Source of the DNA: Planctomycetota bacterium | GTDB lineage: Bacteria; Planctomycetota; Phycisphaerae; Phycisphaerales; Phycisphaeraceae | Assembly (NCBI GenBank): GCA_024279275.1 | Contig: JAJRRS010000128.1 | Span: 2,121-66,120, forward strand | Direction: 5' to 3' | DNA length: 64,000 nt | Shown here: in pieces, positions 2,042 to 49,811 of the stretch | Numbering within the stretch: the first letter of the stretch is position 1 | Layout: each line of letters begins with the position of its first letter | Program-made: the position numbers and the translations under genes | Notes under the pieces: model-generated | The model's database searches: none | What the model saw: only the letters and a program-made list of their open reading frames with translations | What the model was told of the DNA's origin: nothing

Positions 2042-3094
2042 TTAGACGCCGACCGGAACCTGCGCCAGCAGGCTCTTACCTACGCTGTGTAGATCGACGC
2101 AGGCCTCCTTGACGCGGTCACACATGGCCTGCTCGCCAGCCTTCATCCATGCACGGGGGTCGTACAGCTTCTTGTTGCCGACCTCGCCGTCGATCTTCAG
2201 GACGGCGTCGTAGTTCTTCATCATGTGATCAGCAACGGCGCGGGTGAAGGCGTACTGGGTATCGGTATCGACGTTCATCTTGACCACGCCGTAGCCCAGG
2301 GTTTCTTCGATCTGGGCCTTCTCGGAGCCGGAGCCGCCGTGGAAAACCAGCCAGAACTTGGCGTCTTCGCCGTAGACTGTCTTAAGTGCGTCCTGACCCT
2401 GCTTGAGGATCTCAGGACGGAGCTTCACCGCACCGGGCTTGTAAGCACCGTGCACGTTGCCGAACGTCGCCGCGAACATGTACTTGCCGTCCTTCACTTC
2501 GCCCAGACGACGGTAAACCTCGACCATGTCTTCGGGAGTCGTGTAGAGCTTGTCTTCGGGGGTGTCTTCAGTACCTGCGGCACCGTCTTCTTCGCCGCCC
2601 ACCACGCCGGCCTCGACCTCAAGAATCTGCCCGATCTTGCTCATACGCTCAAGCAACGGCACCGCTACATCCATGTTCTCCTTCAAAGGCGAACCCGAAC
2701 CGTCCATCATGTGACTCGAGAACAACGGCAGCTTCCCAGCAGCCACGCGGCGCTCCGACTCTTCGATCAGCGGGATCAGGAATTCATCAACCTTGTCAGG
2801 CTGGCAGTGGTCGGTGTGCAGCACGATGTAGACGTTGTACTTCTCAGCCATCCGGTGGATGTGCTCAGCGATGCTGATCGCACCTTGAACCATGTCCTTG
2901 ACGCCCAGCCCCGACGCAAACGCCCCGCCGCCGGTGGAGACCTGGATCATGCCGTCGCTCTTGCAGTCGGCGAAGGCCTTGAGGGCCGCGTTGGCGGTGA
3001 CATCGCTGGACACGTTGATCGCCGGGAACGCAAACTTATTTTCATAAGCATTGTCCAGCATCTTGCAGTAGGTTTTGTAGTCGGCTACGGGCAT
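2042..3094 (-). CDS. fba: Fructose-bisphosphate aldolase, class II
   Basis: MPVADYKTYCKMLDNAYENKFAFPAINV..., VLHTDHC and LVFHGGSGS motifs. The ATG at 3094 is preceded by an AAGGAAAGAGG RBS. The longer ORF to 3364 is rejected. Confidence 0.95.
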   Translation of the reverse strand: MPVADYKTYCKMLDNAYENKFAFPAINVSSDVTANAALKAFADCKSDGMIQVSTGGGAFASGLGVKDMVQGAISIAEHIHRMAEKYNVYIVLHTDHCQPDKVDEFLIPLIEESERRVAAGKLPLFSSHMMDGSGSPLKENMDVAVPLLERMSKIGQILEVEAGVVGGEEDGAAGTEDTPEDKLYTTPEDMVEVYRRLGEVKDGKYMFAATFGNVHGAYKPGAVKLRPEILKQGQDALKTVYGEDAKFWLVFHGGSGSEKAQIEETLGYGVVKMNVDTDTQYAFTRAVADHMMKNYDAVLKIDGEVGNKKLYDPRAWMKAGEQAMCDRVKEACVDLHSVGKSLLAQVPVGV

Positions 3095-4779: not shown

Positions 4780-4788
4780 GGGGAAAAG

Positions 4789-4936
4789 TGGGGTCTAGGG
4801 TCTGGGGTTCAGGGTCTGGCCGGAAGATGGGGTCCAGGGTCTAGTGAAGAACACCCGCTTCCTCTTCTTTTCTGGCTAGACCCCAGCCCCCAGACCCCAG
4901 ACCCAATCCCCCGGCCCCCAGACCCTAGACCCCCAA
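4789..4936. repeat. Module K: long imperfect hairpin built from GGGTCTRGGG units (left arm 4789-4845, right arm 4875-4936)
   Basis: TGGGGTCTAGGGTCTGGGGT pairs with CCCCCAGACCCTAGACCCCC. A related element with the same CGGAAG centre lies at 27950-28047. Confidence 0.8.
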
Positions 4937-5064
4937 CCTTTTGACACCCCCCCCGCCCCCGGTTACGCTTTTAATGCTGAAAAGCCGACATCCAAAGTGC
5001 GATAACTATGTGAACGAGACTTGTCCCGTGGGGACACCCAACTTTCAGTTCAGGGAGTAGTGCA

Positions 5065-6672: not shown

Positions 6673-7401
6673 CTACCCCCGCTTCACAATCATCGCCAGC
6701 CCAAGCCCCATCAAAACCAGACTCGCCGGCTCAGGCACAAACGTCGTATTAATCGTCAACGCATCCTTGCTGATCGTCGCCATCCCCCCCACCGCCGCAC
6801 TGGCAATCAAGTTGTTATCCATCGCGACGATCACATACGTCGTCTGGATACCCAGGTCAGCCAGGTCGATCAACGCCGCACCCAGCCAAGAGCCACTACC
6901 CGGGCCGTCAACCGGGAACACCGCCGCAGGCGCGGGGATCCCACCCGGGCTGATGACCATGTGAATCGGCTCTGCAAGCGTAATGAATTGTTGTGTCAGA
7001 TCGTCAAAGTACCGCACCGTCAAAGCCCCAGCCGCCGACACGCTCCCGCCTCCAACAATATCGTAGACCCCAGACTCAAAGATCGACAGCGTCCCGATAA
7101 ACAGCCCCGGGGCCGCATCAAACGTAAACTCCAACGCACCCGCTGTCAGGTCGGAGCTGTTATCACTGGCGCTCGCGGTGAACGAAGGCATGGCAAACGT
7201 CATCACATTGCCCGCCCCCGCAGAAGGTGTGCCGTACATCGGCAACGGATCGGTGATCGAGGTCTCGACAATATTGTCATACACCCCATCCGCCACCACG
7301 ACCGCCCCGGGATGCGCCAGGCTCGCTGCCGAAGCACACACAGCCCCCCCAAGCAACGCAGCAGCAGCCATCACACACTGTCCAGACTTGAACCTCAGCA
7401 T
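6673..7401 (-). CDS. PEP-CTERM sorting-domain secreted protein, function unknown
   Basis: The ATG at 7401 follows a GGGAGAAAGGGAAAG RBS. There is a signal peptide, and the C-terminus is VPEPASLVLMGLGLAMIVKRG. Confidence 0.75.
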   Translation of the reverse strand: MLRFKSGQCVMAAAALLGGAVCASAASLAHPGAVVVADGVYDNIVETSITDPLPMYGTPSAGAGNVMTFAMPSFTASASDNSSDLTAGALEFTFDAAPGLFIGTLSIFESGVYDIVGGGSVSAAGALTVRYFDDLTQQFITLAEPIHMVISPGGIPAPAAVFPVDGPGSGSWLGAALIDLADLGIQTTYVIVAMDNNLIASAAVGGMATISKDALTINTTFVPEPASLVLMGLGLAMIVKRG

Positions 7402-7644
7402 CAATTCTTTCCCTTTCTCCCATCCGCCCCATCGAACCCTCAGCCCCGACCCCCAGCACCCACCGGCCAAACAAAACCGGTGCAGATGAAATCTATCCCA
7501 CGCCCATAGGGAAGCTACTTGACTGTCATTTTTGGATGTAAATTGCCCCGATCTAATCGTTACAGATGGACCGCCCAGGAAATAATCATTGACCCGGTCG
7601 CGTAATCAGGGGTATACAGGGTCAACCTTAGCGGAACCTATCCC

Positions 7645-8988
7645 ATGAGAAAGACCGACAAGCCGATCATTGCCCTCACCGCCGTACTGATCCTCATCCT
7701 CACCGCCGCCCTTCTCATCAAAGCCGCCCCCACCTCCACCCCCAACGCCGCCCCTGAGCAACGCGAAGGCTCGGATATCCCCTCCCCCACATCATCAATC
7801 ATAAATCAAAAATCAGAAATCTCCCCCCCCTCCACCACCCTCGCCCCCAACGCCGTCCGCGGCGTCAACTACGCCCACATCCACCGCAACAACAAAGGCT
7901 ACGGCTCGGACGCCTCCAAACGCGAACTCACCAACCTACAAAACCTCGGCATCGACTGGATCGCAATCACACCCTTCGGCTACCAAAGCTCCGCCGACCA
8001 AAACCAGATCGCAGGCTACGACCCCAACCAACCCCTCTCCGCGTTTACCACAACCCCTCCCCCGTTTAGCCCGGTCGCCCGCGACCGGTCCCCTTCCCCA
8101 CTTCATCAATCAGCACTCACACATCAAACCTCCCCCCGCCCCTCCTCCACATCAGCACTCAGCACTCACACCTCAGCACTCACCCCCCGCCCCGGCCAAG
8201 ACCGCTCACTCACCGACCGCCACCTCGCCGAGCAAGTCGCCGCCGCACACCGGCTCGGCGTCAAAGTCCTCATCAAGCCTCACATCTGGTCACGCGACTT
8301 CTGGAACGGCGACGCCTGGCACGGCACCATCGAACAAAACTCACCCAAAGACCACGAATCCTGGCGAAAATCCTACCTACGATTCATCCTGCACCACGCA
8401 CAACTCGCCCAAGACACAAACGCCGAAGCTCTATGCATCGGCACCGAACTCATCAGCCAGACCACCCACCACCCCGACGACTGGCTCACACTCATACGCG
8501 AAGTCAAAAAAATCTACTCTGGCAAACTCACCTACGCCGCACACTGGGATCAGGAGTTCCAGGCCATCACCTTCTGGGACCAACTCGACGCCATCGGCAT
8601 CAGCGCCTACTTCCCACTGGATGCACCCGACAACGCAACCGTCAAACAACTCGTCGATGCCTGGCAACCTCACAAAAAACGGATCGAAGCGGCACACACC
8701 CTCTACAACAAGCCCGTCGTCTTCCTGGAAATAGGCTACCGCCCCGCCACAGGCACCTACCGCCAACCCTGGCTCGACCGCGGCGGCCAACCCGATCCCA
8801 TCGCACAGGCACGCGCCTACGAAGCCCTCTTCCAAACCTACGCCGACGAACCCTGGTGGCACGGCCTGTTCATCTGGAAAGTCTTCACCGACGCCCAAAG
8901 AAGCGATCACCACGGTACCGGCCCCGGCTACTCCTTCAGAAACCAACCCGCCGAGCAAGTCATCCAACAATGGTTCCGCCAACCCTGA
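7645..8988 (+). CDS. Membrane-anchored TIM-barrel glycoside-hydrolase-like protein (clan GH-A / GH113-like) carrying in-frame repeat insertions
   Basis: N-terminal TM helix, then GVNYAHIH..GYGS, WIAITPFGYQ, VLIKPHIW, CIGTELI, LTYAAHWDQE and FLEIGY motifs. The family assignment is by recollection only. Confidence 0.6.
   Translation: MRKTDKPIIALTAVLILILTAALLIKAAPTSTPNAAPEQREGSDIPSPTSSIINQKSEISPPSTTLAPNAVRGVNYAHIHRNNKGYGSDASKRELTNLQNLGIDWIAITPFGYQSSADQNQIAGYDPNQPLSAFTTTPPPFSPVARDRSPSPLHQSALTHQTSPRPSSTSALSTHTSALTPRPGQDRSLTDRHLAEQVAAAHRLGVKVLIKPHIWSRDFWNGDAWHGTIEQNSPKDHESWRKSYLRFILHHAQLAQDTNAEALCIGTELISQTTHHPDDWLTLIREVKKIYSGKLTYAAHWDQEFQAITFWDQLDAIGISAYFPLDAPDNATVKQLVDAWQPHKKRIEAAHTLYNKPVVFLEIGYRPATGTYRQPWLDRGGQPDPIAQARAYEALFQTYADEPWWHGLFIWKVFTDAQRSDHHGTGPGYSFRNQPAEQVIQQWFRQP
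7744..7821 (+). repeat. Module A variant (7744-7782) plus heptad module D (7788-7821) inside the CDS
   Basis: AACGCCGCCCCTGAGCAACGCGAAGGCTCGGATATCCCC and CACATCATCAATCATAAATCAAAAATCAGAAATC translate in frame as NAAPEQREGSDIPSPTSSIINQKSEI. Confidence 0.85.
8051..8200 (+). repeat. Module C REP (8064-8088) plus D-type heptads (8098-8192) inside the CDS
   Basis: GTTTAGCCCGGTCGCCCGCGACCGG followed by CAGCACT heptads translates in frame as PFSPVARDRSPSPLHQSALTHQTSPRPSSTSALSTHTSALTP. Confidence 0.85.
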
Positions 8989-9398
8989 TACGCACCCCCA
9001 ACCACCCATCATCCAACACAATATCAATCCCCCCCCCAACGCCGCCCCTGATCGCAGCAAAGCGGCGGGTATCCCCACCCTCCTCAGAACCCTCCCCCGT
9101 TTAGCCCGGTCGCCCGCGACCGGCTCCCCCCTCCCCCACGAAGCGCCGCGACTTGTCGCGCTCCCCCATCCCCACCCCACGCACCCACTCCACGCTTGCG
9201 GTTTAGCGCCCCTCTTCACCCCAGCACGCAAACCCCTCCCCCTCCCCACATCATCAATCAGCAACCGCAGGTCCGCGAAGCGAAATCACAATTCATACAT
9301 CTCCCCCCACCCCCTCCTCACCTCAGCAATCAGCACTCACACCTCAGACCTCCCCCACTTGGCCCAACCCCCCTCCCCCCGCTAGACTGATACACACC
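8989..9398 (+). repeat. Mosaic repeat cluster: A 9038-9076, C 9099-9123, B 9137-9160, an extra GTTTAGC at 9201, D-type heptads 9246-9350
   Basis: Each module matches copies in the 13.1, 15.0-15.8 and 16.8-17.7 kb clusters. Confidence 0.85.
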
Positions 9399-9471
9399 GG
9401 CCCTGTAGCCCAATGGCAGAGGCACGCGACTTAAAATCGCGCCAGTGTGGGTTCGAGTCCCACCAGGGCCA
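9399..9471 (+). tRNA. tRNA, 73 nt, class I cloverleaf, anticodon UAA by manual fold (isotype uncertain)
   Basis: Acceptor GGCCCTG/CAGGGCC, D arm GCC..GGC with GG in the loop, anticodon stem CGCGA/TCGCG with loop CTTAAAA, 5-nt variable region, T arm GTGGG-TTCGAGT-CCCAC, discriminator A. CCA is not encoded. Confidence 0.75.
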
Positions 9472-9580
9472 TTCACCTCCTTATGCCAATCCCGAACAGA
9501 ACTCGTACGTCAGCGGAATCCCCTCCCCGAACCGTTCACCGATATCCGCCAACCTCCGATATCCGTCAACCCAGGCCCGA

Positions 9581-9621
9581 CGTTTAGCGGCGGATCGCAG
9601 ATCCACGCGTTGGCCTAACGG
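9581..9621 (+). repeat. REP-like module J, second copy
   Basis: CGTTTAGCGGCGGATCGCAGATCCACGCGTTGGCCTAACGG, compared with 1347-1388. Confidence 0.85.
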
Positions 9622-9890
9622 GACAATCGCCCCCCCCCACATAACGTGTGTCCGGGGGCAACCGCAAAAGATTTAACGGGATTGGCATTAAAGCCTTGTC
9701 GATTCAAGACGCACCCATCAGACGTCCGATAATGTTTGCTCGCGGCAGGCTTGCCTATCTTCACACCCCAAGAACTTTGCCAAATAATATTTTCACTCAT
9801 ATCTTAATTGATAACAAGTGGTTATATGACTTTTGCACGCCCAACAACCCCTTCTTTCCCATCATGGGGGGTGTAATTTCAGAGAAAGGG

Positions 9891-9898
9891 TGTATAAT
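9891..9898 (+). promoter_or_regulatory. Candidate extended -10 promoter element TGTATAAT
   Basis: A perfect TGnTATAAT lies 70 nt upstream of the ATG at 9969, in an AT-rich stretch. No clear -35 element is present. Confidence 0.25.
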
Positions 9899-9968
9899 TC
9901 ACCTGTTGTAAAAGGAGGGGACTTCGCATCCGTAAACTCTATTAGCGTGGAGTGAAGGAGAAGTCCTG

Positions 9969-10859
9969 ATGACTGGTCAAATTAGTGCCCCACGGTCGCG
10001 CAATAGCTGCGTCCGTACCCTGTCGCTCACTGCGGCAATTCTCACAACCGGATTCTTAACGGCCAACGCCGCGCAAGCGGATGTCTATGGCTTTGAGTGG
10101 GATCGCCCCGCCGTATTCGACGGCAATGCCGGGCCTATCTATGTCAGTGATGAAGCAGGTGTCATCACCAGTATCACCACCCAATACAACTCTGACACCC
10201 AGAGCCTCTCCTTCGTCGCCGCCTTCGAGCCAGAACCCGGCACGGGCCAACTCCCCGTCGGCTTCTTCCTCGTTCTCAACAACGGCCCGATGCCCATCGG
10301 CATGGACGGCGAGTTCGCCATCCTGTACTTCGATGCCATCACCGGCGCCGCACCCACCGTCACCGCCTACGCCTACAACGGCGAAAACGGTGCAGACTCC
10401 TTCTTCGACGGGGCCGCAGCACCCGGCAACCAGGCTCCCGACCCCATCGTCTCATCGATCAACGACCCCTCCTTTGTTACCGCCGCCTCCAGCGTCGATG
10501 GCCCAGGCGGACGCGTCCTCTCCTTCACCATCGACACCACCGCCATCAACGCACACAACCCGCTCTACGGCAACGCCGTAGACTGGCAAGGCATCGGCTT
10601 CGATGAAAACATCGGCGTCTGGTTCCACCCCTACTCGAACTTGAACCCAGCCTACGGCCAAGACGGCTTCCTCCTACCCGACCCCTCCGGCGCAAGCTGG
10701 CTCACCTGGGGCCAATACCCCGACCAGGGCGAACAGTTCCACGGCTGGCTCGACGCGACCAACCAGCAATCCAACGTACTCATCCCTGAACCCGCCAGCC
10801 TCACCCTGATCGGCCTGGGCGCCATCGCACTCACAACCAGAGGCCGTCGCAACGCATAA
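9969..10859 (+). CDS. PEP-CTERM sorting-domain secreted protein, function unknown
   Basis: Signal peptide (LTAAILTTGFLTANAAQA). The C-terminus is IPEPASLTLIGLGAIALTTRGRRNA. Confidence 0.75.
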   Translation: MTGQISAPRSRNSCVRTLSLTAAILTTGFLTANAAQADVYGFEWDRPAVFDGNAGPIYVSDEAGVITSITTQYNSDTQSLSFVAAFEPEPGTGQLPVGFFLVLNNGPMPIGMDGEFAILYFDAITGAAPTVTAYAYNGENGADSFFDGAAAPGNQAPDPIVSSINDPSFVTAASSVDGPGGRVLSFTIDTTAINAHNPLYGNAVDWQGIGFDENIGVWFHPYSNLNPAYGQDGFLLPDPSGASWLTWGQYPDQGEQFHGWLDATNQQSNVLIPEPASLTLIGLGAIALTTRGRRNA

Positions 10860-11070
10860 ACAACAACACCCCCGGCACAGGCCGATTCATCGGCCGCCTC
10901 CTGCCGCTCGCGGCTTCGCGTAGTCCAGAACCACACGCAACAAAGGGATTCTTGAACACCCGCCAACATAGATAATTTTCCGATCTGCTAGTTTCGATCG
11001 GTGTAGTTTGCTAGGGATCTGGACAGGCTTATCCTCCCAGGTAGGTCCGACCAGATGCCCAACCCACAAA

Positions 11071-11109
11071 CGTTTCGGGTGTGTTGCACAGCCACCCGAA
11101 GCGTTTTTT
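11071..11109 (+). terminator. Rho-independent terminator with no adjacent plus-strand CDS
   Basis: CGTTTCGGGTG-(11-nt loop)-CACCCGAAGCG forms an 11-bp stem, followed by TTTTTT. The nearest plus-strand stop is 210 nt upstream. Confidence 0.65.
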
Positions 11110-11158
11110 CATGCGCCCATCAACCACGAGTGCCGTGTAATTTAACCGTGCGAGTTAT

Positions 11159-11183
11159 GTTTAGCCGCCGCGGCCACGCGGCG
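11159..11183 (+). repeat. REP-like module L: GTTTAGC + hairpin CGCCGCG-GCCA-CGCGGCG
   Basis: A reverse-complement copy lies at 56240-56264. Confidence 0.8.
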
Positions 11184-11261
11184 TATTCGATGCACTAAAC
11201 TGACCACCCGAACCATTAATGCATCGTTGCGAACGATAGTGAATCAGCTCAATCTCCCCTT

Positions 11262-11293
11262 AACAAAAAAAAGCGACCCATCAAGGATCGCTT
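11262..11293 (-). terminator. Rho-independent terminator of tRNA-Ala
   Basis: The minus strand reads AGCGATCC-TTGAT-GGGTCGCT followed by TTTTTTTT. Confidence 0.65.
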
Positions 11294-11327
11294 TTCGTTG
11301 TTTTATGGGTCCAAAACCCGTATTAAG

Positions 11328-11400
11328 TGGAGCTGACAGGGATCGAACCTGCGACCTTCTGTATGCCATACAGACGCTCTCCCAACTGAGCTACAGCCCC
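11328..11400 (-). tRNA. tRNA-Ala (anticodon GGC)
   Basis: The reverse complement is GGGGCTGTAGCTCAGTTGGGAGAGCGTCTGTATGGCATACAGAAGGTCGCAGGTTCGATCCCTGTCAGCTCCA. It has the G3:U70 Ala identity pair and anticodon loop ATGGCAT. Confidence 0.92.
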
Positions 11401-11574
11401 ATAGTGTCCCTCCCGGCGCGGGAAGTATAAGCCCCACAGCCCCCCGCAGCAACCCGATCCCCCCCGCCTCCAGCGACCCAGAAGCCTCCAATACCGTCAT
11501 CTATCGACCAGATCACCCTATTACACAACCACCCCGGATGTGCTATCATTTAATGCTCGGCTGAATCTGTCCTC

Positions 11575-12339
11575 ATGGAGACCCGCGTGTCGCTTCAAGA
11601 AAAGCTGTACGACTTATTTCTGCTGGATCAACAGGTGCGAGGTCTAAGGACCCGCCTCGATGCAGCCACCCGCAGGCTCACCCTACAAGACAAGAAACTA
11701 GGCCAACTCCGCCAGCAACAAGCAGAGCTGGCCGACCAGTTCAAGCACGCCCAGGCCGAAGTCTCCACGCTCGAGCACCAGTCCAACGACGCCGAAGAAC
11801 GTGTCACCAAGCTGCGCGAGCAGATGAACAGCGTCCGCAACAACAAAGAATACTCAGCCATGCTCGTCGAGGTGAACACCCTCAAGGACGAAAAAAGCAA
11901 GCTCGAAGACCAGGCCCTTGCAAAGATGTCCACCTCAGACGACCTCAAACAACGACTCGAAGACGTCAAGACCCAGGCCGACACCCAGGCCAAGCTCGTT
12001 GAATCCGCCAAAACCGAGGTCATAAACGCCAAGAACGAAGTCGGCGTCCAACTCAACGACGCCACCGAAAAACGTGAAGCAGCCGCCTCACTCATCCCCG
12101 CCGACATCCTCGCCACCTTCGAACGACTCGCCGACCACTACGACGGCGAAACCATGGGCCAAATCGAAGAGCAGGACAGACGACGCCGTGAATACACCTG
12201 CAACGGCTGCTATATGGAACTACCCATCGAACGCGTTAACGCCGTTATGGTCAAGCCCGACACTTTAGTCACCTGCCCAAGCTGCAACCGCTTCCTGTAT
12301 ATCAAGCAGGAACTCAAAGCCGAGATCGGCGCAAAATAA
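11575..12339 (+). CDS. Coiled-coil protein with C-terminal C4 zinc ribbon (COG1579/DUF164-like)
   Basis: Long heptad-rich region, then CNGCYMELP...CPSCNRFLY. Confidence 0.75.
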   Translation: METRVSLQEKLYDLFLLDQQVRGLRTRLDAATRRLTLQDKKLGQLRQQQAELADQFKHAQAEVSTLEHQSNDAEERVTKLREQMNSVRNNKEYSAMLVEVNTLKDEKSKLEDQALAKMSTSDDLKQRLEDVKTQADTQAKLVESAKTEVINAKNEVGVQLNDATEKREAAASLIPADILATFERLADHYDGETMGQIEEQDRRRREYTCNGCYMELPIERVNAVMVKPDTLVTCPSCNRFLYIKQELKAEIGAK

Positions 12340-12417
12340 CCACCCACGGGCTGACCTCGTCCCTACGACTCGGCAACCCACACAACCTTCAACCATAATA
12401 TCCGGGAAAATATCACC

Positions 12418-13131
12418 TTGAAACTCACGATCCACTTCGATGGCGGCTCGCGAGGCAACCCAGGCCCAGCATCCGCTGGCGTCGTTATCATCGCATCAGA
12501 CACCGGCAAACCCCTACACGAAGCCGGCTACTTCCTGGGCAAATGCACCAACAACGTCGCCGAATACCAGGGCCTCCTCCACTCCCTCGAACAAGCCAAG
12601 ACTCTCAAAGGCACCTCCCTCGATATCTACAGCGACTCCCAGCTCCTCGTCCGCCAGATCACCGGCCAATACCGCGTCAAATCCCCAGACCTAAAGCCAC
12701 TCTACCAGGAAGCCATCAAACGCCTCCACACATTCGACGACTGGAAAATCCAGCACATCCTCCGCGATAAAAACCAACGGGCCGATGAATTAGCCAACCT
12801 CGCCATGGACCACAAAGCCGACATCACCGCCGACACCCCACCCGCAACCTCCACTCCCAACTCAAGCCTCACCCCTCACCCCTCAACCCTCTCCACCACC
12901 CCCTGCTGGTCCGCCAAACTCACCGGCAAAGACGGCAAATGCATCGCCGGCTGCTCCACACGCAACGAATACACCTTCGGCCCAACCACCCCCGACGGCT
13001 TCTGCGTACACGCCACCCAAGCCATGCTCAACGACGGCCCACTCCAATGGAACCCCAAAAAACGCTCCGGAACCTCCCGCTGCCCAGCCTGCAACCTCAA
13101 CATTCAGATCAACATCATCCACCGCGGATAA
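12418..13131 (+). CDS. RNase HI-family domain fused to a Cys-rich C-terminal domain (TIGR04076-like)
   Basis: TTG start. IHFDGGSRGNPGPASAGVVI, NNVAEYQGLLHSLE, IYSDSQLLVRQ and NQRADELAN are RNase H motifs. The C-terminal region has CIAGCS...TPDGFCVHA...CPAC. Confidence 0.8.
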   Translation: MKLTIHFDGGSRGNPGPASAGVVIIASDTGKPLHEAGYFLGKCTNNVAEYQGLLHSLEQAKTLKGTSLDIYSDSQLLVRQITGQYRVKSPDLKPLYQEAIKRLHTFDDWKIQHILRDKNQRADELANLAMDHKADITADTPPATSTPNSSLTPHPSTLSTTPCWSAKLTGKDGKCIAGCSTRNEYTFGPTTPDGFCVHATQAMLNDGPLQWNPKKRSGTSRCPACNLNIQINIIHRG

Positions 13132-13474
13132 GCCCCCATCCCCCCTCAACCTCATCACCAACTCCCAACGCCGCCCCCTGAGCGCAGCGAAGGGGCGGAT
13201 CTCGCCTCCAAAACACTCTCTCCTGACCTTCCCCCACGAAGCGCCGCGACTTGTCGCGTCCCCTCTCCCCCATTTAGCCCGGTCGCTCGCGACCGGCTCC
13301 CCTCCCCACATCATAAATCGGGGCCTCTGAATAACCTCGGCGGAGGCTGATTTAGCAGCCGTGATTGCACGGAATCACACTCACTGAAGGGTTATTCAGA
13401 GATCCCAATCATCAATCACACATCATAAATCCCCCTCCTCCCCCCTCAAATACACATCGCTTTTAGCCGAACCT
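13132..13474 (+). repeat. Mosaic repeat cluster: A 13167-13202, B 13235-13258, C variant 13272-13296, D 13305-13320 and 13405-13435, unique 12-bp inverted repeat 13325-13336/13389-13400
   Basis: Module matches to the other clusters. The inverted-repeat arms are CTCTGAATAACC and GGTTATTCAGAG. Confidence 0.8.
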
Positions 13475-13513
13475 GTGATTACAATAGAGCTTAGCCCCAC
13501 CCAAGGATCTGCC

Positions 13514-13903
13514 ATGCTTATCCGTAAACCCAGCGACACCCAATCCCGAGTCATGGACATGCCCGGCGCATCAGGCGTCACCATGAAACTCATGGTCGGC
13601 TCAGACGACGGCGCACCCAACTTCGCCATGCGCATCTTCGAGGTTCAGCCCGGCGGACACACCCCTCGCCACCAGCACAACTACGAACACGAAATCATCA
13701 TCCTCGAAGGCCACGCCCACGTCGGCACCAGCGATGACGAATCCCAAGATACCACCGCCCAAGCCGGCGACGTCCTCTTCATCCCCGCCAACCAGACCCA
13801 CCAGTTCCGCAACACCAGCCAAAACGTCCTGAAGTTCATGTGCATGGTCCCCACCGAATTTGACTGCGCCGGCTCCACCGAACCTACTCCCGGCTCGTTC
13901 TAA
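13514..13903 (+). CDS. Cupin domain protein
   Basis: GGHTPRHQHNYEHEIIILEG and GDVLFIPANQTHQFRN, the two cupin motifs. The ATG at 13514 follows an AAGGA RBS. Confidence 0.8.
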   Translation: MLIRKPSDTQSRVMDMPGASGVTMKLMVGSDDGAPNFAMRIFEVQPGGHTPRHQHNYEHEIIILEGHAHVGTSDDESQDTTAQAGDVLFIPANQTHQFRNTSQNVLKFMCMVPTEFDCAGSTEPTPGSF

Positions 13904-14005
13904 TCGCCGATGAATATATTACCCACCAGCTTTGACGCATCCGACCGCGACAACGACAAGTAGCCCTCAACCCGGTTTTGTTTCTTTTTCGATAAGGGTC
14001 AACAC

Positions 14006-15037
14006 ATGCCCAATCAGCCCGCCAAACGCCGTAACTTCTTCGCCACATCCGACGGCATCTTCGTCGCATCTGCACTCCTGATGACCGCCTCCGCTGTCGT
14101 CGCGCTCACCGCCTCCGTCGTACTCGCCAAGGTCACCTTCCAGGACCACGCCACCGAACTACTCTCACAATACGCCGCCTACATCTTCAGCATCCTCCTC
14201 GCCATGGCCAGCCTCTTCGCTCTCATCGCCGGCGCAGTCCGCTGCGGGGTCTACGGCCGAGCCGGCGCACCCGCCCCCCAATCCGCCAACGACTCCGGCG
14301 ACGTCCTCACACAACTACAGATCATCTCCGACCGCATGCTCCTAAGCGACACCGCCAAACGCATCGCATACCGCCAGGAAGACGTCAACGCACTCCGCGA
14401 AGCCATCGCCGACGACATCAAACGCAAAGACTTCGACGCCGCTCTCGTCCTCGTTCAGGAAATGAGCCAGACCTTCGGCTACCGCGAGGAGTCCGAAGAA
14501 TTCCGCGAACAAATCATGGCCGCACGCAGCACCGTCATCGATGCACGCCTCACCGTCCTCCTCCAACGCCTCGACCAGATCATCGCCGCACACGACTTCC
14601 CACAAGCACTCTCAGACGCCCTGAAAATCATGCGGATCTACCCCGACCAGGTCCGCGTCCAAAACCTCGACCAGATCGTCAACCAAGCCCAGGAAACCTA
14701 CAAACACCAGATCGAACGCGACTTCCTCGCCGCCGCTCAGAAAGACGACGTCGACGGCGCTATCGCACTGCTCACAGAACTCGACGCCTTCCTCACCGAA
14801 CGCGAAGCAGAACCCTTCCGCGAAGTCGCAAGAGGCGTCATCGGCAAAAAACGCGACAACCTCGGCGTACAATTCAAGATGGCCGTCCACGACAAGGAAT
14901 GGCTCAAGTCCATCCGCGTCGGCGAACAAATCATCAAAGAATTCCCCAACACACGCATGGCCGAAGAAGTACGCGAACGCCTGGACCAACTCCGCGAACG
15001 CGCCGCCGGCCAACAAGCCGCCCAACAAGCCCGCTAA
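14006..15037 (+). CDS. Hypothetical membrane-anchored helical protein
   Basis: Two N-terminal hydrophobic helices and a long helical C-terminal region. Codon usage is consistent with the neighbours. No family recognised. Confidence 0.6.
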   Translation: MPNQPAKRRNFFATSDGIFVASALLMTASAVVALTASVVLAKVTFQDHATELLSQYAAYIFSILLAMASLFALIAGAVRCGVYGRAGAPAPQSANDSGDVLTQLQIISDRMLLSDTAKRIAYRQEDVNALREAIADDIKRKDFDAALVLVQEMSQTFGYREESEEFREQIMAARSTVIDARLTVLLQRLDQIIAAHDFPQALSDALKIMRIYPDQVRVQNLDQIVNQAQETYKHQIERDFLAAAQKDDVDGAIALLTELDAFLTEREAEPFREVARGVIGKKRDNLGVQFKMAVHDKEWLKSIRVGEQIIKEFPNTRMAEEVRERLDQLRERAAGQQAAQQAR

Positions 15038-15773
15038 CCCCATCTTCACCTGACACCACCACCCCAAAGCCGCAGGCTGCGAAGCTGCCGCGGATCTCCC
15101 CACGTTTCTCCCTCACCATCTCCCCCCTCCTAACGCCGCCCCTGAGCGCAGCGAAGATGCGGGTATCCCCCCACCACCAAAATACTGACCTTCCCCACGA
15201 AACGCCGCAACGTGTCGCGTCCCCCCTCCCCCGTTTAGCCCGGTCGCCCGCGACCGGCTCCCCTCCTCACATCATCAATCATAAATCAACAACCATAGGC
15301 CACCGAAGCTAAATCATAAATCCCCCTCCCCCACGAAACGCCGCGCCCCGGCACGCCTTTCCCTATTCCAAATCTGCGTCATCTGCGCAATCTGCGGACA
15401 CCTCCCCCTCCCCTCTTCACATCAGCAATCATAAATCACAATTCATACCTCCCCCTCCCCACATCAGCACTCAGCAATCACACATCAGCACTCCCCCCCC
15501 ACCCCCAACGCCGCCCCTGAGCGCAGCGAAGGGACGGGTATCCCCCCACCCCCGTTTACCTCAATCACTCACGCCCTGCCACGCCTTTCCCTATTCCAAA
15601 TCTGCGTCATCTGCGCAATCTGCGGACACATCCCCTCCCCACATCAGCAATCATAAATCACAATTCATACCTCCCCTCCCCCTCCTCACCTCAGCACTCA
15701 GCAACCGCAACTCCGCAAAGCGATATCTTCTCTCCACCGTGCAACTCCCTCCCACATCGCTACACTGTCCGCC
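15038..15773 (+). repeat. Largest mosaic repeat array: A 15132-15170 and 15507-15546, B 15196-15219 and partial 15332-15345, C 15233-15257, E 15351-15401 and 15580-15629, many D heptads
   Basis: A 735-bp gene-free interval composed almost entirely of modules separated by C-rich CCCCTCCCC linkers. It contains an internal ~100-bp duplication (15352-15454 vs 15580-15675). Confidence 0.9.
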
Positions 15774-16802
15774 ATGCCCACAACCCACCAAGCCGTCTTG
15801 ATACCCGGCGACGGCATCGGCCCCGCCGTCTCCGCCGCCGTTCTCAAAATACTCAAAGCCGCCGACGCTCCCGTCGCCTTCCACCAGCACCACGCCGGCA
15901 TCGCCGCCCTTGCAGACTCCGGCGAAGTCCTACCCCAGTCCACCATCGACGCCGTCCGTGAGCACCACGTCGCACTCAAAGGCCCATGCACCACGCCCGT
16001 CGGCAAAGGCTTCTCCTCCGTCAACGTCCAACTACGCAAAAAACTCGACCTCTACGCCGCCATCCGACCCGTCCGCAGCCTCCCAGGCGTCCCCACCCGC
16101 TACACAGACGTAGACCTCGTCATCTTCCGTGAAAATACCGAAGGCCTCTACTCCGGCATCGAAAACGAAATCACCGACGGCGTCGTCACCAGCCTCAAAA
16201 TCGCCACCCGAACCGCCTGCACTCGCATCGCTCAGCGGGCTTTCGAGTACGCCAAAAAACGTGACCGTAAAAAAGTCACCGTCTTCCACAAAGCCAACAT
16301 CCTCAAACTCAGCGACGGCCTCTTCCTCGACTGCGTCGAAAAAGTACACGACGAACAGTTCCCCGACATCCCCTACGAAACCCAAATCATCGACGCCGGC
16401 TGCATGAAGCTCGTACAGGACCCCACCCAGTTCGACCTCCTACTAATGGAAAACCTCTACGGCGACGTCATCTCTGACCTCACCGCAGGACTCGTCGGCG
16501 GCCTCGGCGTCGTCCCCGGATCTAACATCGGAGAGACCGACGCCGTCTTCGAAGCAGTCCACGGCAGCGCACCAGACATCGCAGGCAAAGGCATCGCAAA
16601 CCCCCTCGCCCTACTCATGTCCGCCGTCATGATGCTCAACCACCTCGCCGAATCACGCAAAGATGACCGCTGCCTCACCGCCGCCAACGCCATCAAAAAT
16701 GCCTACAACAAAGCTCTTGAGGACAACCAAAAAACCGGCGACCTCGGCGGCAACCTCAACACCGACCAATTCGCCAACGCCGTCATCCAACGACTCACCT
16801 AA
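15774..16802 (+). CDS. Isocitrate/isopropylmalate dehydrogenase family protein (NAD-dependent IDH-like)
   Basis: LIPGDGIGPAV, NVQLRKKLDLYAAIRP, FRENTEGLYSG, NLYGDVISDL and HGSAPDIAGKGIANP motifs. Confidence 0.9.
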   Translation: MPTTHQAVLIPGDGIGPAVSAAVLKILKAADAPVAFHQHHAGIAALADSGEVLPQSTIDAVREHHVALKGPCTTPVGKGFSSVNVQLRKKLDLYAAIRPVRSLPGVPTRYTDVDLVIFRENTEGLYSGIENEITDGVVTSLKIATRTACTRIAQRAFEYAKKRDRKKVTVFHKANILKLSDGLFLDCVEKVHDEQFPDIPYETQIIDAGCMKLVQDPTQFDLLLMENLYGDVISDLTAGLVGGLGVVPGSNIGETDAVFEAVHGSAPDIAGKGIANPLALLMSAVMMLNHLAESRKDDRCLTAANAIKNAYNKALEDNQKTGDLGGNLNTDQFANAVIQRLT

Positions 16803-16825
16803 CCCCCCCCAGTTTGCCCCTCCCC

Positions 16826-17647
16826 AACGCCGCCCCTGAGCGCAGCGAAGGGACGGGTATCCCCCACCCCTCCCCGTTTAGCCCGGTCGCCCGCGACCGG
16901 CTCTTCCACTCCCCCCTGCGACCGGCTCTAACCCTCTAAACCCGCGACAAACCCCCATCGCTGCCGCCGCAACCCCTGCCTCACCGGATTACCTTCGACA
17001 TACTTCACACACTGCCCCACACGCTCAGACGTATCCAGATAAACAATCCACCCACCCATCGCCCAAGGTGTCGGCACCCGACCGTGACGATCAACACACC
17101 CCGCCAGCGGGCGAACACCCTCAGCACTCATCCGCCTTGTGCCTGCACTTTTTAACCGCTGCGATATCTCTTCCCCGTCGAGCCTGTGCCGAGCAACCAC
17201 CATATGCACATGGTCCGGCATGATTGCACACGCATACACATTCAACCCTGTCTGCTCAATTACCTGCCCAAACCCACGCCCCACCGCCCGCGCCTGAACG
17301 CCCGTTAACCGTACCGGCGGGTACTTCAACACCCCTTGCATCTCGCGCCGTCGGCCACGGTCGTAATTTTGATGTGCCACCGATCGCGTCGTCTCAACCT
17401 TCGTCGCCATACCAAACCGTTGAAGATGTCTCGCCCAAACCCTCGTTGACCACGAACCCCGCGACTCATTGGGAAGCCAAAACCCATAGGTAGACCAGAT
17501 GATATGGGAAGCGATAGCCATCAGGATTCCACCGTATCAAAGATACTGGTCGCGGGCGACCGGGCAAACACAAGACGACACTCCCTCCCCCCATTTAGCC
17601 CGGTCGCCGCCTCCCCCTCCCCGTTTAGCCCGGTCGCCCGCGACCGG
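16826..17647. mobile_element. REPtron-like unit: RAYT-type transposase gene bracketed by module C REPs
   Basis: Module A lies at 16826-16865 and module C at 16876-16900. A partial C at 16918-16928 overlaps the transposase stop. A partial C lies at 17593-17608 and a full C at 17623-17647. Confidence 0.7.
16928..17521 (-). CDS. HUH/Y1 transposase of IS200/IS605 TnpA type, REP-associated tyrosine transposase (RAYT)-like
   Basis: HUH motif PDHVHMVVA and catalytic Tyr context VKYVEGNPVRQGL. It is 197 aa, has no partner tnpB and is flanked by REPs. Confidence 0.8.
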   Translation of the reverse strand: MAIASHIIWSTYGFWLPNESRGSWSTRVWARHLQRFGMATKVETTRSVAHQNYDRGRRREMQGVLKYPPVRLTGVQARAVGRGFGQVIEQTGLNVYACAIMPDHVHMVVARHRLDGEEISQRLKSAGTRRMSAEGVRPLAGCVDRHGRVPTPWAMGGWIVYLDTSERVGQCVKYVEGNPVRQGLRRQRWGFVAGLEG

Positions 17648-17725
17648 CTCTTATCTTTCTCACCGCCGCCTGGGACACCCTTCCCTCACCTCAGCAATCA
17701 GCACTCACACATCAGACCTCACCCC
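17593..17725 (+). repeat. Partial C, full C (17623-17647) and D heptads (17686-17725)
   Basis: The D module supplies the last four codons and the stop of the minus-strand CDS 17712..18329. Confidence 0.8.
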
Positions 17726-18329
17726 CACCCTCCAACCGCCGCATCATCCCACCCATCTGCTCCTTGAACCGCTGATGCTCCGCAGGATCGGTTTCACGTT
17801 GATGGGTCAGACGCCGCGACCCGTCGGCCAGGTAGTTCATCCGATGGGCCGTGTCGATCAGACGCTGATAATTCCGCACGATCGCCTCCTCTGCCCACAG
17901 CCGCGCGAACGGCGGAGTGTTCACATCGTGCGCCAGTCGCACCAGCCGTTGGATCGACGCCAAAATCAACCGCTGAAACTCGCCAAGCAACTCATCACCC
18001 AACGCCAGGTCAGGCGTCAATGCGTGGTCCTTACGGATGGCCGACCGGTCACGGCGGACAGTCCGCACACTGATCTTCATCAACTCCGCAATCTCCGTCG
18101 TCGAGAACCCCTCATGCGTCAGGTGATCCACACAACGCTGCCTCGTTTCCATCGGCAACTCTTTCGGCGAAACCCGCCCCGCATGTATCTGCTGCACCAA
18201 CGCCGTGACCGCCTCCCTGTCCGCCTCCGCCTTATCCCCAGCCCCTCCGGCCGAGGCGCATCGAGCCTCAACCTCCCCCACAACTTGTTCTGGATCGCCA
18301 GCCACAACAGAATCGGATGTCTGAAGCAC
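17712..18329 (-). CDS. Helix-turn-helix protein (sigma-70 region 4 / resolvase-type HTH-like), function unknown
   Basis: GFSTTEIAELMKISVRTVRRDRSAI. The remainder is helical and I do not recognise it. Confidence 0.55.
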   Translation of the reverse strand: MLQTSDSVVAGDPEQVVGEVEARCASAGGAGDKAEADREAVTALVQQIHAGRVSPKELPMETRQRCVDHLTHEGFSTTEIAELMKISVRTVRRDRSAIRKDHALTPDLALGDELLGEFQRLILASIQRLVRLAHDVNTPPFARLWAEEAIVRNYQRLIDTAHRMNYLADGSRRLTHQRETDPAEHQRFKEQMGGMMRRLEGGGEV

Positions 18330-18637
18330 TCGAAAAACCCCTTGAGAGGCGGTAACAACCGCGATTGACTGTACGGCTTATGTTAGGTATCATACCCAGC
18401 ATGGCCCCCACGATCAACCCCAGGCTTCACACTCAAAACAAGCCTTTCTCAAACCCAGGGCGGACGGCCTACCCCCAGAACCCGGACATCGCACAACCCA
18501 CGACCACCCAATCATTTACACCACTTATCACCTCACATGGGGGGAGGGGGCCGGACATGACCGCCCCACACAGTCCGACACAGGTTGCGTTATCCTTAAC
18601 CCCAAGATCACAAACCCTTCAACGAGAAACGCAAACC

Positions 18638-19498
18638 ATGCCACAAGTAATAGATTGGTCCATACCCGGCTCGGATGGCCGCACCATCCTCGGCAACACA
18701 CACATGCCCGACGGCGGACATGAAAAAGCCATCGGCGTCATCCTCATCTGCCACGGCTTCAAGGGCTACAAAGACTACGGCTTCTTCCCACACATGGCAC
18801 AAGCCGCCGCATCCGCCGGCCTCATCGCCCACCGCTTCAACTTCTCCCACTCCGGCATGACCAACAACACCGACACCTTCGAGCACCCCGACCTCTTCGA
18901 GCAGGACACCTGGCGCAAACAATCCAACGACCTCAAAGCTGTCATAGCCGCCGTCGAATCCGGCGAACTTCAAGGCCAACACAAACCACTCACCATCTTC
19001 GGCCACAGCCGAGGCGGACTCACCACCCTCCTAACGGCTGGTGATCAGGGTGCAAGCAAGCAACTCGCAGCCGTCATCACCGCCGCCTCACCCAGCGCTG
19101 CCAGCCGACTCGATCCCGATCAGATAGAAATGCTCAAGCGCCTCGGCCGATTGCCCTCCCCATCATCACGCACCGGACAAACACTCCACGTCGGACGCAT
19201 CTGGCAAGACGAAATCGACGAAGACCCCACCTGGCACGACCCCTGCCAAGCCATCGCCGCCATCAACTGCCCCGTCTTGCTCATCCACGGCACCGACGAC
19301 ACCACCGTCCCTATCTCCGAAGCCCACGAACTACACCAAGCAAAACCTGATGCCAAACTAGAAATCATTCCGGGGGCAGGCCACACCTTCAACGCCCCCA
19401 ACCCCCTGCCACTTAACCAGTCACCTCCCCCCGAAACCCAACAGATGATCGCCGCCGCTTGCGGCTTCGCAGTCGATTGTTGCAAAAGTAAAACGTAA
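18638..19498 (+). CDS. Alpha/beta hydrolase
   Basis: ILICHGFKGYKDY and the nucleophile elbow GHSRGG, with the late motif LIHGTDDTTVP...GAGHTF. The ATG at 18638 is preferred over the longer ORF from 18365. Confidence 0.8.
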   Translation: MPQVIDWSIPGSDGRTILGNTHMPDGGHEKAIGVILICHGFKGYKDYGFFPHMAQAAASAGLIAHRFNFSHSGMTNNTDTFEHPDLFEQDTWRKQSNDLKAVIAAVESGELQGQHKPLTIFGHSRGGLTTLLTAGDQGASKQLAAVITAASPSAASRLDPDQIEMLKRLGRLPSPSSRTGQTLHVGRIWQDEIDEDPTWHDPCQAIAAINCPVLLIHGTDDTTVPISEAHELHQAKPDAKLEIIPGAGHTFNAPNPLPLNQSPPPETQQMIAAACGFAVDCCKSKT

Positions 19499-27949: not shown

Positions 27950-28047
27950 TTGGGTCTGGGGTATAGGGTATAGGGTCTGGTCGGAAGGGAAACAAAAATC
28001 TGATCGGTATAAGGTCTTATCTGGTTAGACCCAAGACCCTAGCCCCC
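27950..28047. repeat. Module K-like hairpin element in the accB-accC spacer
   Basis: GGGTCTGGGGTATAGGGTATAGGGTCTGGTCGGAAGG ... CCAAGACCCTAGCCCCC, compared with 4789-4936. Confidence 0.7.
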
Positions 28048-34326: not shown

Positions 34327-34386
34327 AAGATATACTTAGCCTGCCACACCGACCGATACCCGACACCCGAACCCCGATACCCGATC

Positions 34387-36651: not shown

Positions 36652-36810
36652 CTACCAGGAAAACCACAATATAGATCGTATGCAAAGGCCTACAAAAGTA
36701 GCCCAACAATTATCTCAAGACCCCATCTCACCAATCCCGCTCCCGCTTGGTGCAAACACCACTCTCCCGCCGTGTCCACCGTTCGTGGGGAAGGTCACAT
36801 CGCTCGACAT

Positions 36811-36893
36811 TCCGAATCTGTGTAATCTGCGCAATCTGCGGACACGCCCCTCCCCCGCTTTCTCCGTGTCTCTGTGACTCCGTGCGCTCCGTG
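36811..36893 (+). repeat. Module E (36811-36845) followed by module G (36862-36893)
   Basis: Matches 52-127 and the E copies at 15.3-15.6 kb. Confidence 0.85.
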
Positions 36894-37399: not shown

Positions 37400-37612
37400 A
37401 GATTGATGACCTGTGATGGATGATAGATGATGCGAGGAACAAGACTTAAACACAGAGAGTACAAAGCACACCAAGACACCGAGAAGATCAACACACCGCA
37501 CGAAGCGCCGCGACTTGTCGCGTCCCCTTCTTATCTGTGTCATCTGCGCAATCTGCAGACACTCTCTTCTTCAGTCCTCTTCCGATCCCTTCGCGCCTTC
37601 GTGGCTATCCTA
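37400..37612. repeat. Inverted D-type heptads (37400-37437), module B (37499-37522), module E (37533-37563), module H variant (37590-37612)
   Basis: TGATTGATGACCTGTGATGGATGATAGATGATG is the G-rich complement of the D modules. B and E are in direct orientation. Confidence 0.75.
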
Positions 37613-38876
37613 CGCCCCCTCTGCGGTGAACCCTATGCCTCAACACCGCCACACAACCCAACCCCACCACCAGCCCCGCCGTCGGCTCAGGGACCACCAC
37701 CAATGACGGCGCCCCCGCGTTCCAATTCCCAAGCACCGTGTTCAGATCCTCAATCCCCACAAAACCATCCGCACTCGGATCCCCAGCACTATAAAACCCA
37801 GGCAGAACAAATTGGTTCCAATGACTCAGAACAGTGTTGAGGTCATCGATCCCAACAAACCCGTCGGCATTAAGGTCGCCAATGATAACCGGACGGTCCG
37901 GATCGCCGGTCGCAACGACATCCACTTCGATGCCGAGATTTGTCCCAGTCGCAATCGTGTCAGGCGCGTCAAGCCATTCAAGCCAGACGCTCAGAGAATC
38001 ATCGTTAGGACTCGTTGTGCCAGCAAGAAATCCCTGCACACCCAGCCGCATCCCATTCGTATTAGTCAGGTCAATACGGATCGTCGGGCTGTCGGCAAAC
38101 CAGGTGGAACCAGGACTCTTAATCAATTCGATCCACCCCCCAACCTCATCAGCCGCAGAGAACAGATGGCTATTGCGTGCGGTCGCACTGGTGAGTTGCA
38201 GTGTCTGGATATCACCATTGACATCTTCATAACGGATCATGTCAGCATCGTAGACGCTGGAAGTCGAGAACATGCTCGACACCGTCATCATCCGAAAGCG
38301 ATCGTTGCCGGTAAAGAATCCGGTAACAAGATTGATGTTCTGATCGGAGGTGAAGTCGACGGTCAACCCAACCGTGGTTTTGCCGACGATCGGATCGGGG
38401 AACGAGCGTGTGGTAGTCAGGCTGGCCTGTGTGCCAAAGTCCCCAACGATCTGGCTGGCATATCGCAAGGCCGAAGTAGCTGTGACATCCCCGCGTGTAA
38501 CGGTAGGAATGAACTGCAACCCAGAGGTAGTGCGGAACGAAGCCGAGCCGACCACGCTGGTCCCCAGAGCCGCCCCGCTACCGTCGGGCTTCTGGTAGGT
38601 GTTCCGCAGGAAGGTGTTGGTGTGAAGATCAACAAAGACCAGCGGGAAACTCCCCGTGCCCGGCACCTGGTCGAACGCCTCAACGATCTTGTGGTTATGC
38701 CCACCAATCAGCGAGTTGTTAAAGAAGATCGGGACCGCCGGCTCAAGCACACCGCCATCGGCAGCACGCAACGCGAGTGTGCCGTCGTCGAAAATTACCT
38801 GATCGCTTGCGACCGCAGGCATAACGGCCATAAAGCAGATCGGCAACAGTTTCCACGCGGTCATCCGGCGACTCAT
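37605..38876 (-). CDS. Secreted protein with two dockerin-like repeats and a PEP-CTERM anchor
   Basis: GDLNADGFVGIDDLNTVLSHWNQ and GDPSADGFVGIEDLNTVLGNWN, followed by VPEPTAGLVVGLGCVAVLRHR. Confidence 0.8.
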   Translation of the reverse strand: MSRRMTAWKLLPICFMAVMPAVASDQVIFDDGTLALRAADGGVLEPAVPIFFNNSLIGGHNHKIVEAFDQVPGTGSFPLVFVDLHTNTFLRNTYQKPDGSGAALGTSVVGSASFRTTSGLQFIPTVTRGDVTATSALRYASQIVGDFGTQASLTTTRSFPDPIVGKTTVGLTVDFTSDQNINLVTGFFTGNDRFRMMTVSSMFSTSSVYDADMIRYEDVNGDIQTLQLTSATARNSHLFSAADEVGGWIELIKSPGSTWFADSPTIRIDLTNTNGMRLGVQGFLAGTTSPNDDSLSVWLEWLDAPDTIATGTNLGIEVDVVATGDPDRPVIIGDLNADGFVGIDDLNTVLSHWNQFVLPGFYSAGDPSADGFVGIEDLNTVLGNWNAGAPSLVVVPEPTAGLVVGLGCVAVLRHRVHRRGGVG

Positions 38877-47198: not shown

Positions 47199-47280
47199 AG
47201 CTCCTCAAATTCCCGCCGGCACAGACAACGGGTTAAAATCTTCGGGTGGCCATACTCGGATCGTGAGCCTCGGCCCTAAA

Positions 47281-49713: not shown

Positions 49714-49811
49714 TCATTCAGACGGGTCATGCCAACGAGGATTGGAATCCCGGGCATGAAACACATCATACCTGCGTGGTGATCGGTCCGGTCCGGGCAC
49801 TGGCGTCTGGA

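Follow-up and report, generated by a model that had tools for sequence, protein, structure and literature searches.

Mosaic repeat array ahead of an isocitrate dehydrogenase gene of a marine Phycisphaeraceae bacterium: a probable pile-up of dispersed modules

A non-coding spacer of 735 bp (15038-15773) precedes an isocitrate dehydrogenase (IDH) gene in an uncultured marine Phycisphaeraceae bacterium, and the question raised by this locus is what such a long, repeat-rich interval is composed of and how it was assembled. Its upstream bound is the stop codon of an ORF (14006-15037) for a 343-residue protein to which no function is assigned, and its downstream bound is the ATG at 15774 of a gene (Iso_dh, 15774-16802) of the isocitrate/isopropylmalate dehydrogenase family (Pfam PF00180, E=9e-101). 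A reading of the sequence only had described the stretch between this stop and the IDH-family start as gene-free, which is borne out by the ORFs and by the PF00180 match. When compared with the window (the whole stretch of DNA analysed, 64 kb), 73% of the array bases lie in a significant match to another place, as compared to 0-2% of the bases in 15 coding segments of array length used as controls. At its two ends, 85 nt (15038-15122) and 50 nt (15724-15773) have no match elsewhere in the window; the description of nearly every base as part of a module is therefore correct for most of the interval and somewhat overstated for its ends. The modules A, B, C, D and E are all present where that reading had placed them; dinucleotide-preserving shuffles give 0-0.1 expected matches per module pattern. 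That they might be peculiar to this spacer is dispelled by their recurrence at other sites of the window, in two sister contigs (L071 and L077) and in metagenome contigs. All module matches inside the array are in direct orientation. The parts of the array are listed in Table 1.

Table 1. Parts of the array, its transposase context and other module mosaics in the window
Feature	Position	Strand	Evidence or remark
Unique 3' trailer of upstream gene	15038..15122	+	no match elsewhere in window
Weak hairpin in 3' trailer	15070-15094	+	-13.3 kcal/mol, z -1.3
Module A copy 1, hairpin, apex CCCT-GAGCGCAGCGA-AG	15123..15175	+	exact 25-mer; weak fold, -10.3 kcal/mol
Module B, short CGCGAC-TT-GTCGCG-type hairpin, degenerate in this copy	15189..15220	+	repeat matches, fold
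Module C, intact REP: GTTTAGC tag and 8-bp palindrome CCGGTCGC/GCGACCGG	15233..15258	+	repeat copies, fold, RAYT
D1 heptad tract (CACATCA TCAATCA TAAATCA ...) and short unique insert	15259..15321	+	7% G
C-tract and truncated B (CCCCACGAAACGCCGC)	15322..15345	+	B 16-mer match
Module E copy 1, three ATCTGCG words at 9-nt spacing	15352..15401	+	identical 50-mer; core high-copy in marine metagenomes
D1 and D2 units, ~42 nt each, C-tract then G-poor heptads	15402..15496	+	TRF period 42, 2.1 copies; 0 kcal/mol
Module A copy 2, ancestral copy	15497..15550	+	orthologous to A of sister L071
Decayed REP (GTTTACC...)	15546..15579	+	alignment: orthologous to decayed C of L071
Module E copy 2	15580..15629	+	identical 50-mer
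D1, D2 and D3 tracts	15630..15727	+	last part orthologous to L071 D3 tract
Conserved promoter-like region of IDH gene	15728..15773	+	TAnACT invariant in seven lineages
RAYT-type HUH/Y1 transposase (context, outside array)	16928..17521	-	PF01797, NF047646, motifs, flanking C
Other module mosaic	1-120
Other module mosaic	7736-7830
Other module mosaic	8054-8193
Other module mosaic	9029-9340
Other module mosaic	13160-13440
Other module mosaic	16822-16903
Other module mosaic	17546-17720
Other module mosaic	36780-36893
Other module mosaic	37496-37562

Other classes of sequence were also considered for this interval. A pseudogene reading of the array gains no support from the ORFs, and a CRISPR reading gains none from the repeat geometry. 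A G-quadruplex or i-motif reading of the C-tracts was dropped, since just two canonical four-tract motifs fall in the array.

The repetition of the E + D block 228 bp further on is confirmed at ~89% identity, as evident from the alignment of 15352-15477 with 15580-15704 (89% over 131 columns); self-comparison also displays a 69-nt repeat family of 93% identity spaced by 228 nt. The duplication, or the length of the array as such, could have arisen as an assembly artefact, the DNA being a metagenome-assembled, short-read contig of 74.6 kb. In public runs, the organism reaches 2-5x and the array is recovered as fragments of 30-600 nt, with alternative joints when the stringency is set to 90%. 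At 97% stringency, however, there are no alternative joints. X3 contigs span 15606-15721 and 15728-15850, the only parts independently spanned, with 1-2 differences. An artefact is thus considered highly improbable, because the duplicated blocks differ by ~11% (and the A copies at 3/44 positions), which renders them resolvable, and because the orthologous arrays of the sisters, which come from independent assemblies, have a common module order.

Among the modules, C is the only one that folds significantly as compared to shuffles. It consists of GTTTAGC followed by a perfect palindrome (CCGGTCGC-CC-GCGACCGG) with an 8-bp perfect stem (-13.2 kcal/mol, z -2.7), and is present in six to seven copies in the 64-kb window, including the one at 15233. 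A scan of one genome per species recovered 70 loci with an exact match to the 24-mer of C, all of them in Planctomycetota MAGs and spanning Phycisphaeraceae, Tepidisphaeraceae, Thermoguttaceae and Planctomycetaceae, with many copies per MAG in relatives. A RAYT-type ORF (16928-17521, -) is located 1.2 kb downstream of the array, as evident from a match to Y1_Tnp (PF01797, E=4e-5), an HUH motif (DHVHMV) and a Tyr motif (KYVEGNP); its top NCBIfam match is NF047646 (REP_Tyr_transpos, E=8e-12), at 45 bits against a cut-off of 80. Residues D103, H104 and H106 and the motif Y174-V-x-x-x-P are invariant in three homologues, and a PDB profile search with the RAYT alignment gave marginal matches to ISDra2 TnpA alone. 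The ORF is bracketed by C at 16876-16901 (+) and by an inverted copy at 17546-17565, and transposase homologues of 42% identity in L004 and L012 are again located between inverted copies of C. The 70 loci, together with the location of RAYT homologues between inverted C, indicate that module C is a true, phylum-wide REP and that a RAYT-type transposase is its cognate enzyme. A class of REPs is marked by an unpaired terminal tag with a conserved sequence, GTAG (or CGTC); GTAG-tagged REPs, some of them in Planctomycetes and some intragenic, have been reported, as have degenerate tags (PMC3733652). The tag of C is TTAG inside the invariant GTTTAGC, and related Planctomycetota copies have GTAGC.

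The transposase looks inserted at the IDH site or specific to this lineage, and not anciently resident, since relatives are without the segment that carries it. The RAYT and an HTH/ECF-sigma-like gene (17712-18329, -) lie within an extra segment of 1.86 kb (about 16797-18656), which is absent between the IDH and alpha/beta-hydrolase genes in five contigs (L071, L072, L075, L107 and L108), where the next genes stand at most a few hundred bases beyond the IDH gene. The C copies are letter-perfect in the window, where the RAYT is present, and decayed at both orthologous sites in L071 and L077; L071 has no RAYT at the corresponding IDH/hydrolase site, and contig L077 does not reach that site. Intact versus decayed C fits recent RAYT-linked activity of the repeat, as a correlation only.

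Folds of modules A and B, when compared with shuffles, give z values of -0.3 to -1.3. A, with the apex CCCT-GAGCGCAGCGA-AGGG, folds weakly (-10 to -17 kcal/mol) and shares an exact 25-mer at 15132, 15507, 16826, 9038, 7744 and 13164; B shares an exact 16-mer at 15193 and 15329. A is located 24-95 nt past four + strand stop codons and is also present at orthologous sites in L071 and L077, where it keeps its place just after stop codons while C decays. The A apex GCCGNCCCTGAGCGCAGCGAAG (22-nt core; window copies at 13164, 15132, 15507 and 16826) occurs verbatim in 29 JGI metagenome contigs (L078-L106) with a GC content of 49-77%. Most of these are clearly not Planctomycetota, unrelated soil contigs being included, and several have more than one copy. 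In L101 and L106, the only two Phycisphaerae-like contigs of this set, A lies beside heptamer tracts, (CCCCCAA)n and (GGTATCG)13. In the remaining contigs, the basal stem varies below an unchanged apex in a partly compensatory manner, although this comparison is not a fair covariation test because the scan fixed the left stem.

It may be ventured, as a rather doubtful proposal, that A belongs to a very widespread, as yet undescribed family of hairpins in which the apex, CCCT-GAGCG(N)AGCGA-AGGG, is conserved and the basal stem varies freely. The apex family has no Rfam match, a literature search by the A-motif sequence found no relevant paper, and a plasmid search with an A-like hairpin returned unannotated 86% matches in Pseudomonas plasmids and nothing else. 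Retention of the position of A while C decays, together with conservation of the apex beyond the phylum, hints at a function rather than pure junk. If a conserved protein of the host or of a mobile element reads the A apex, A would be the functional anchor of the arrays, and this would explain its post-stop position while the neighbouring REP decays. Hairpin plus word-tract units would, if so, represent a common and unrecognised gene-end construction in Phycisphaerae; the widely shared apex is the one observation from which more might follow.

Neither D nor E is a palindromic unit; both are tracts of short words that lack structure, repeating every 7 nt in D and every 9 nt in E. The heptad cores of D are at 15268, 15418, 15460 and 15640, and the D tracts contain 4-7% G on the + strand and 50-64% A+T and fold at 0 kcal/mol. 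Their units of 42-49 nt comprise a C-tract plus heptads (TRF periods 42 and 49) and are dispersed, D1 in four copies and D2 in five. TRF also reports 4.3 copies of period 7 at 15464-15493, where matches reach only 76% and the words are degenerate, and 2.9 copies of period 9 for E. The latter is present as an identical 50-mer at 15352 and 15580; its 30-nt core reaches unitig depths of 20-80 in marine metagenomes, as compared to 2-5 for unique flanks, and is joined there to many different flanks. Tandem arrays of 6-10 nt units are found near C at 24% across the 70 loci and at 9% of random positions, a weak enrichment because the random positions include coding DNA.

Cyanobacterial heptameric simple repeats (STRR) were reportedly described by Mazel et al. 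in 1990. D and E resemble heptamer-type simple repeats of this kind, and the GGGNATC heptameric repeats of Xanthomonas and Nostoc (PMC4692102), in forming tracts of about four 7-nt words whose number and sequence vary between relatives, and in their intergenic place, often within ~50 nt of a stop codon. The D words, however, are degenerate, AT-rich and G-free, and cannot form a quadruplex because of this lack of G; furthermore, D1 and D2 behave as dispersed 40-50-nt units, not as products of pure local slippage.

Further word repeats were observed in the window. A composite in which ~20 nt separate ATCTGCG from CTCYGTG words is found at 36809-36893 and 50-120, and is conserved in Phycisphaera sp. 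RI_382 (L044, about 2850-3000 of the reverse strand), where E-like words also form outer arms around a REPIN-like C doublet. (GGGTCTA)n stands opposite (TAGACCC)n as long imperfect inverted repeats at 4780-4940 and 27950-28045, and (CCGATAC)4.7 at 34353-34385 gives the GGGTATC type, as described in Xanthomonas and Nostoc (PMC4692102), when read on the complementary strand.

The C-tracts between the modules had been taken as linkers that join them, and the plus strand of the D modules as essentially G-free; both have to be viewed against the composition of the strand. The array has 46% C and 14% G, as compared to 40% C and 20% G in + strand coding DNA and 60% C and 13% G at the four-fold sites of + strand genes. 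The - strand genes in the first 38 kb (RAYT, HTH and those at 28.6-32.8 kb) display 50-55% G at third positions. The GC skew is -0.3 to -0.4 over 1-38000 and reaches -0.85 at third positions of the IDH gene. Its sign switches at about 38-46 kb, where convergence of genes is likewise seen (1-38000 versus 46000-64000); two more distant relatives (L107 and L108) have a far weaker skew. Since the + strand is C-rich whatever the gene direction, its C-richness represents a bias of the physical strand, presumably from replication.

The tracts of the CCCCTCCCC type number 8 as against 4.0 +/- 1.8 expected, and C runs of at least 4 are fewer in the array than expected (26 versus 39). The linkers are largely predicted by the neutral composition of the strand, so that their role as module joints is not upheld. 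The low G of the D tracts stands as an observation, and is itself largely expected from the same neutral composition. Linkers and G-poverty are thus mostly filler at compositional equilibrium and need not be a designed joint, because the skew of the array does not exceed that of neutral sites. It is the G-bearing hairpins and AT-rich D tracts that truly stand out in composition. An extreme strand bias largely yields striking C-rich linkers and G-free tracts, which is a caution for any reading made from the letters only. An inverted REP-like hairpin with the GTTTAGC tag and a different stem was also observed at 56240-56263, beyond the GC-skew switch, and forms one data point for strand-linked REP orientation.

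Comparison with sister sequences for gain and loss of modules, which had been proposed earlier, was carried out on six syntenic contigs. Homologues of the 343-residue upstream protein put the organism in Phycisphaeraceae. The 735 bp ahead of the IDH gene in the window correspond to 235 bp in L071 (89% protein identity), 228 bp in L072, 309 bp in L073, 123 bp in L075, 114 bp in L107 and 128 bp in L108, and module-sized indels are seen. In this spacer, both the hairpin and the 7-8-nt words differ from lineage to lineage, the sole invariant of the seven-lineage alignment being a TAnACT box 7-8 nt before the ATG (TACACT at 15761-15766 in the window, 7 nt ahead of the IDH ATG). A consensus scan of the + strand of the array found neither a sigma-70 site nor an intrinsic terminator. 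The invariant TAnACT suggests that the IDH mRNA is leaderless and has its own promoter. The spacer of L071 comprises A, a decayed C, D3 and the promoter, and aligns to 15497-15773 of the window. From this alignment, the promoter-proximal 277 bp are the only ancestral part of the array, and the promoter-distal ~460 bp (A, B, intact C, D1, B', E, D1, D2) are new in the window lineage and partly duplicated.

The comparisons show the repeat identity, the RAYT-C link, the gain and loss of module-sized pieces among lineages and the bias in composition. The array itself is probably best explained as a pile-up, selfish or neutral, in which a RAYT-linked REP, two other hairpin repeats and dispersed heptad-type word units accumulated by module insertion and local duplication. 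As part of the same explanation, the site of the array probably always holds a short gene end made of a hairpin plus words. Three types of block make up the array. The first comprises the hairpins, namely C, a REP that the RAYT-type single-strand DNA transposase nearby would mobilise or maintain, and the weaker repeats A and B; the second comprises the AT-richer unstructured word tracts, D (7 nt) and E (9 nt), themselves dispersed as 40-50-nt units; and the third is C-rich filler with the composition of neutral sites on the + strand.

Starting from an ancestral A, C, D core beside the IDH promoter, the array would have grown by whole-module insertions and by one duplication of the E+D block, probably via slipped or unequal pairing between the many C-tracts. 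These tracts would provide ready microhomology for such pairing, which fits the C-tract boundaries of the indels. The single orientation of the modules may have two reasons, namely that local duplication preserves orientation, and that the bias of the strand, along with HUH transposition into a single replication strand, would favour one polarity. Both this mode of growth and the mainly selfish or neutral nature of the array are what we infer from the comparison. As the orthologues show, module-sized gains have made one spacer of a little-studied phylum three to six times longer, the gained modules being the RAYT-linked REP, other hairpins and heptad-type word tracts.

A role of the array in ending or stabilising the upstream transcript would be secondary to this. 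If such a role were primary, the array would be a working 3' end or insulator, in which the hairpins (H0, A, B, C) stabilise or pause the transcript and D/E, with their regularly spaced TC dinucleotides, act as Rho rut sites, so that transcription stops before the leaderless IDH promoter; judged from the sequence features, this is possible but unlikely. The unfolded D tracts, the lack of an intrinsic terminator on the + strand of the array, the position of A shortly after the four + strand stop codons and the occurrence of a hairpin plus word tract at the IDH spacer in 7/7 lineages, ahead of the invariant TAnACT, are consistent with it. The C-rich and G-poor composition of the array also agrees with rut sites; however, it does not discriminate, because coding DNA of the strand is similarly biased, most of all at four-fold sites. 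Moreover, a length of 735 bp is not needed for insulation, since the relatives manage with 114-309 bp. The modules stay in + orientation beside - strand genes (RAYT and 37605-38876), and C and A-like hairpins in other genomes display no clear bias in orientation with respect to the upstream gene (26 versus 24 for C and 13 versus 8 for A-like copies, as obtained with a crude gene caller).

That the array encodes structured non-coding RNA(s), or a cis-regulatory leader of the IDH gene, is very hard to credit, although some compensatory stem changes in A between copies and lineages would agree with it. Rfam covariance models over 7400-18000 (E<=1) matched two tRNAs and nothing else, leaving the array without a match. 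The whole array folds no better than shuffles (z -1.1), a significant fold being confined to C, and its content is not conserved between lineages except for the last ~50 nt. The apparently leaderless nature of the IDH mRNA also argues against a leader.

As a probable pile-up, the array is a dense local example of known bacterial repeat DNA, and not a new system; it extends REP/RAYT and heptamer-repeat biology to Phycisphaeraceae, as specialists would expect, and is no surprise to them. As in the REP/BIME and RAYT (TnpA_REP) systems of E. coli, Pseudomonas and Stenotrophomonas, a short tagged palindrome is dispersed extragenically, a single Y1/HUH gene is bracketed by inverted copies, and the REP clusters with non-palindromic motifs into mosaics, with occasional intragenic copies. 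The short (20-40 nt) stable hairpin of a REP is found in C, with A and B being weak, and the Y1/HUH gene flanked by inverted REPs that characterises a REPtron is found in the window, L004 and L012. The tag here is TTAG (GTTTAGC) and not GTAG, and the RAYT, which falls below the curated cut-off, belongs to a Planctomycetota branch and lies in the 1.86-kb segment missing from relatives.

What defines a BIME is a cluster whose REPs alternate in orientation and have a few conserved linker motifs between them. The resemblance to BIMEs that had been proposed holds for the combinatorial mosaic of dispersed modules, for C as a REP and for the nearby RAYT, but does not extend to the arrangement, as the array modules are all direct and neither head-to-head nor tail-to-tail, most of the array is non-palindromic, and the only inverted REP pair flanks the RAYT. 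A REPIN (two inverted REPs forming one long hairpin) is not found in 15038-15773; REPIN-like doublets are present in L004, L012 and L044. The further proposal that the array has many more module types than BIMEs fails, the BIMEs of E. coli being no poorer in motif types: according to Gilson and Bachellier, they are said to combine three PU types and about seven extra-PU motifs.

The modules of the array recur at about eight other sites in the window, nearly all copies being in + orientation, and can also land in frame in an enzyme gene. A GH113 glycosidase gene (7645-8988; PF22612, E=5e-51) contains a surface-loop insert of 40 residues encoded in frame by C+D+D2 (about 8064-8190). Alignments show that this loop insert is absent from 11 homologues, the sister included, and the C+D+D2 insertion is a recent one. 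The A+D block at 7736-7830 is read in frame as part of the N-terminal linker of GH113 and is common to the sister L077. Rickettsia palindromic elements (RPE) were reportedly described by Ogata et al. in 2000 as inserted in frame in genes, and the read-through of C+D+D2 and A+D in the loop and the linker is alike; however, this likeness concerns the neighbouring GH113 gene and not the array, and the elements here are mainly intergenic. On the 3' side of GH113, the window and L077 align cleanly save for two indels of whole modules (107 bp and 51 bp), each with C-tracts as its bounds.

Further downstream, a tRNA of 73 nt at 9399-9471 is called Leu(UAA) by ARAGORN and is kept in L073, L075 and L077. 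Its variable loop has just 5 nt, bacterial tRNA-Leu normally having a long variable arm. The stretch just 3' of this tRNA (9480-9960) displays a differing composition.
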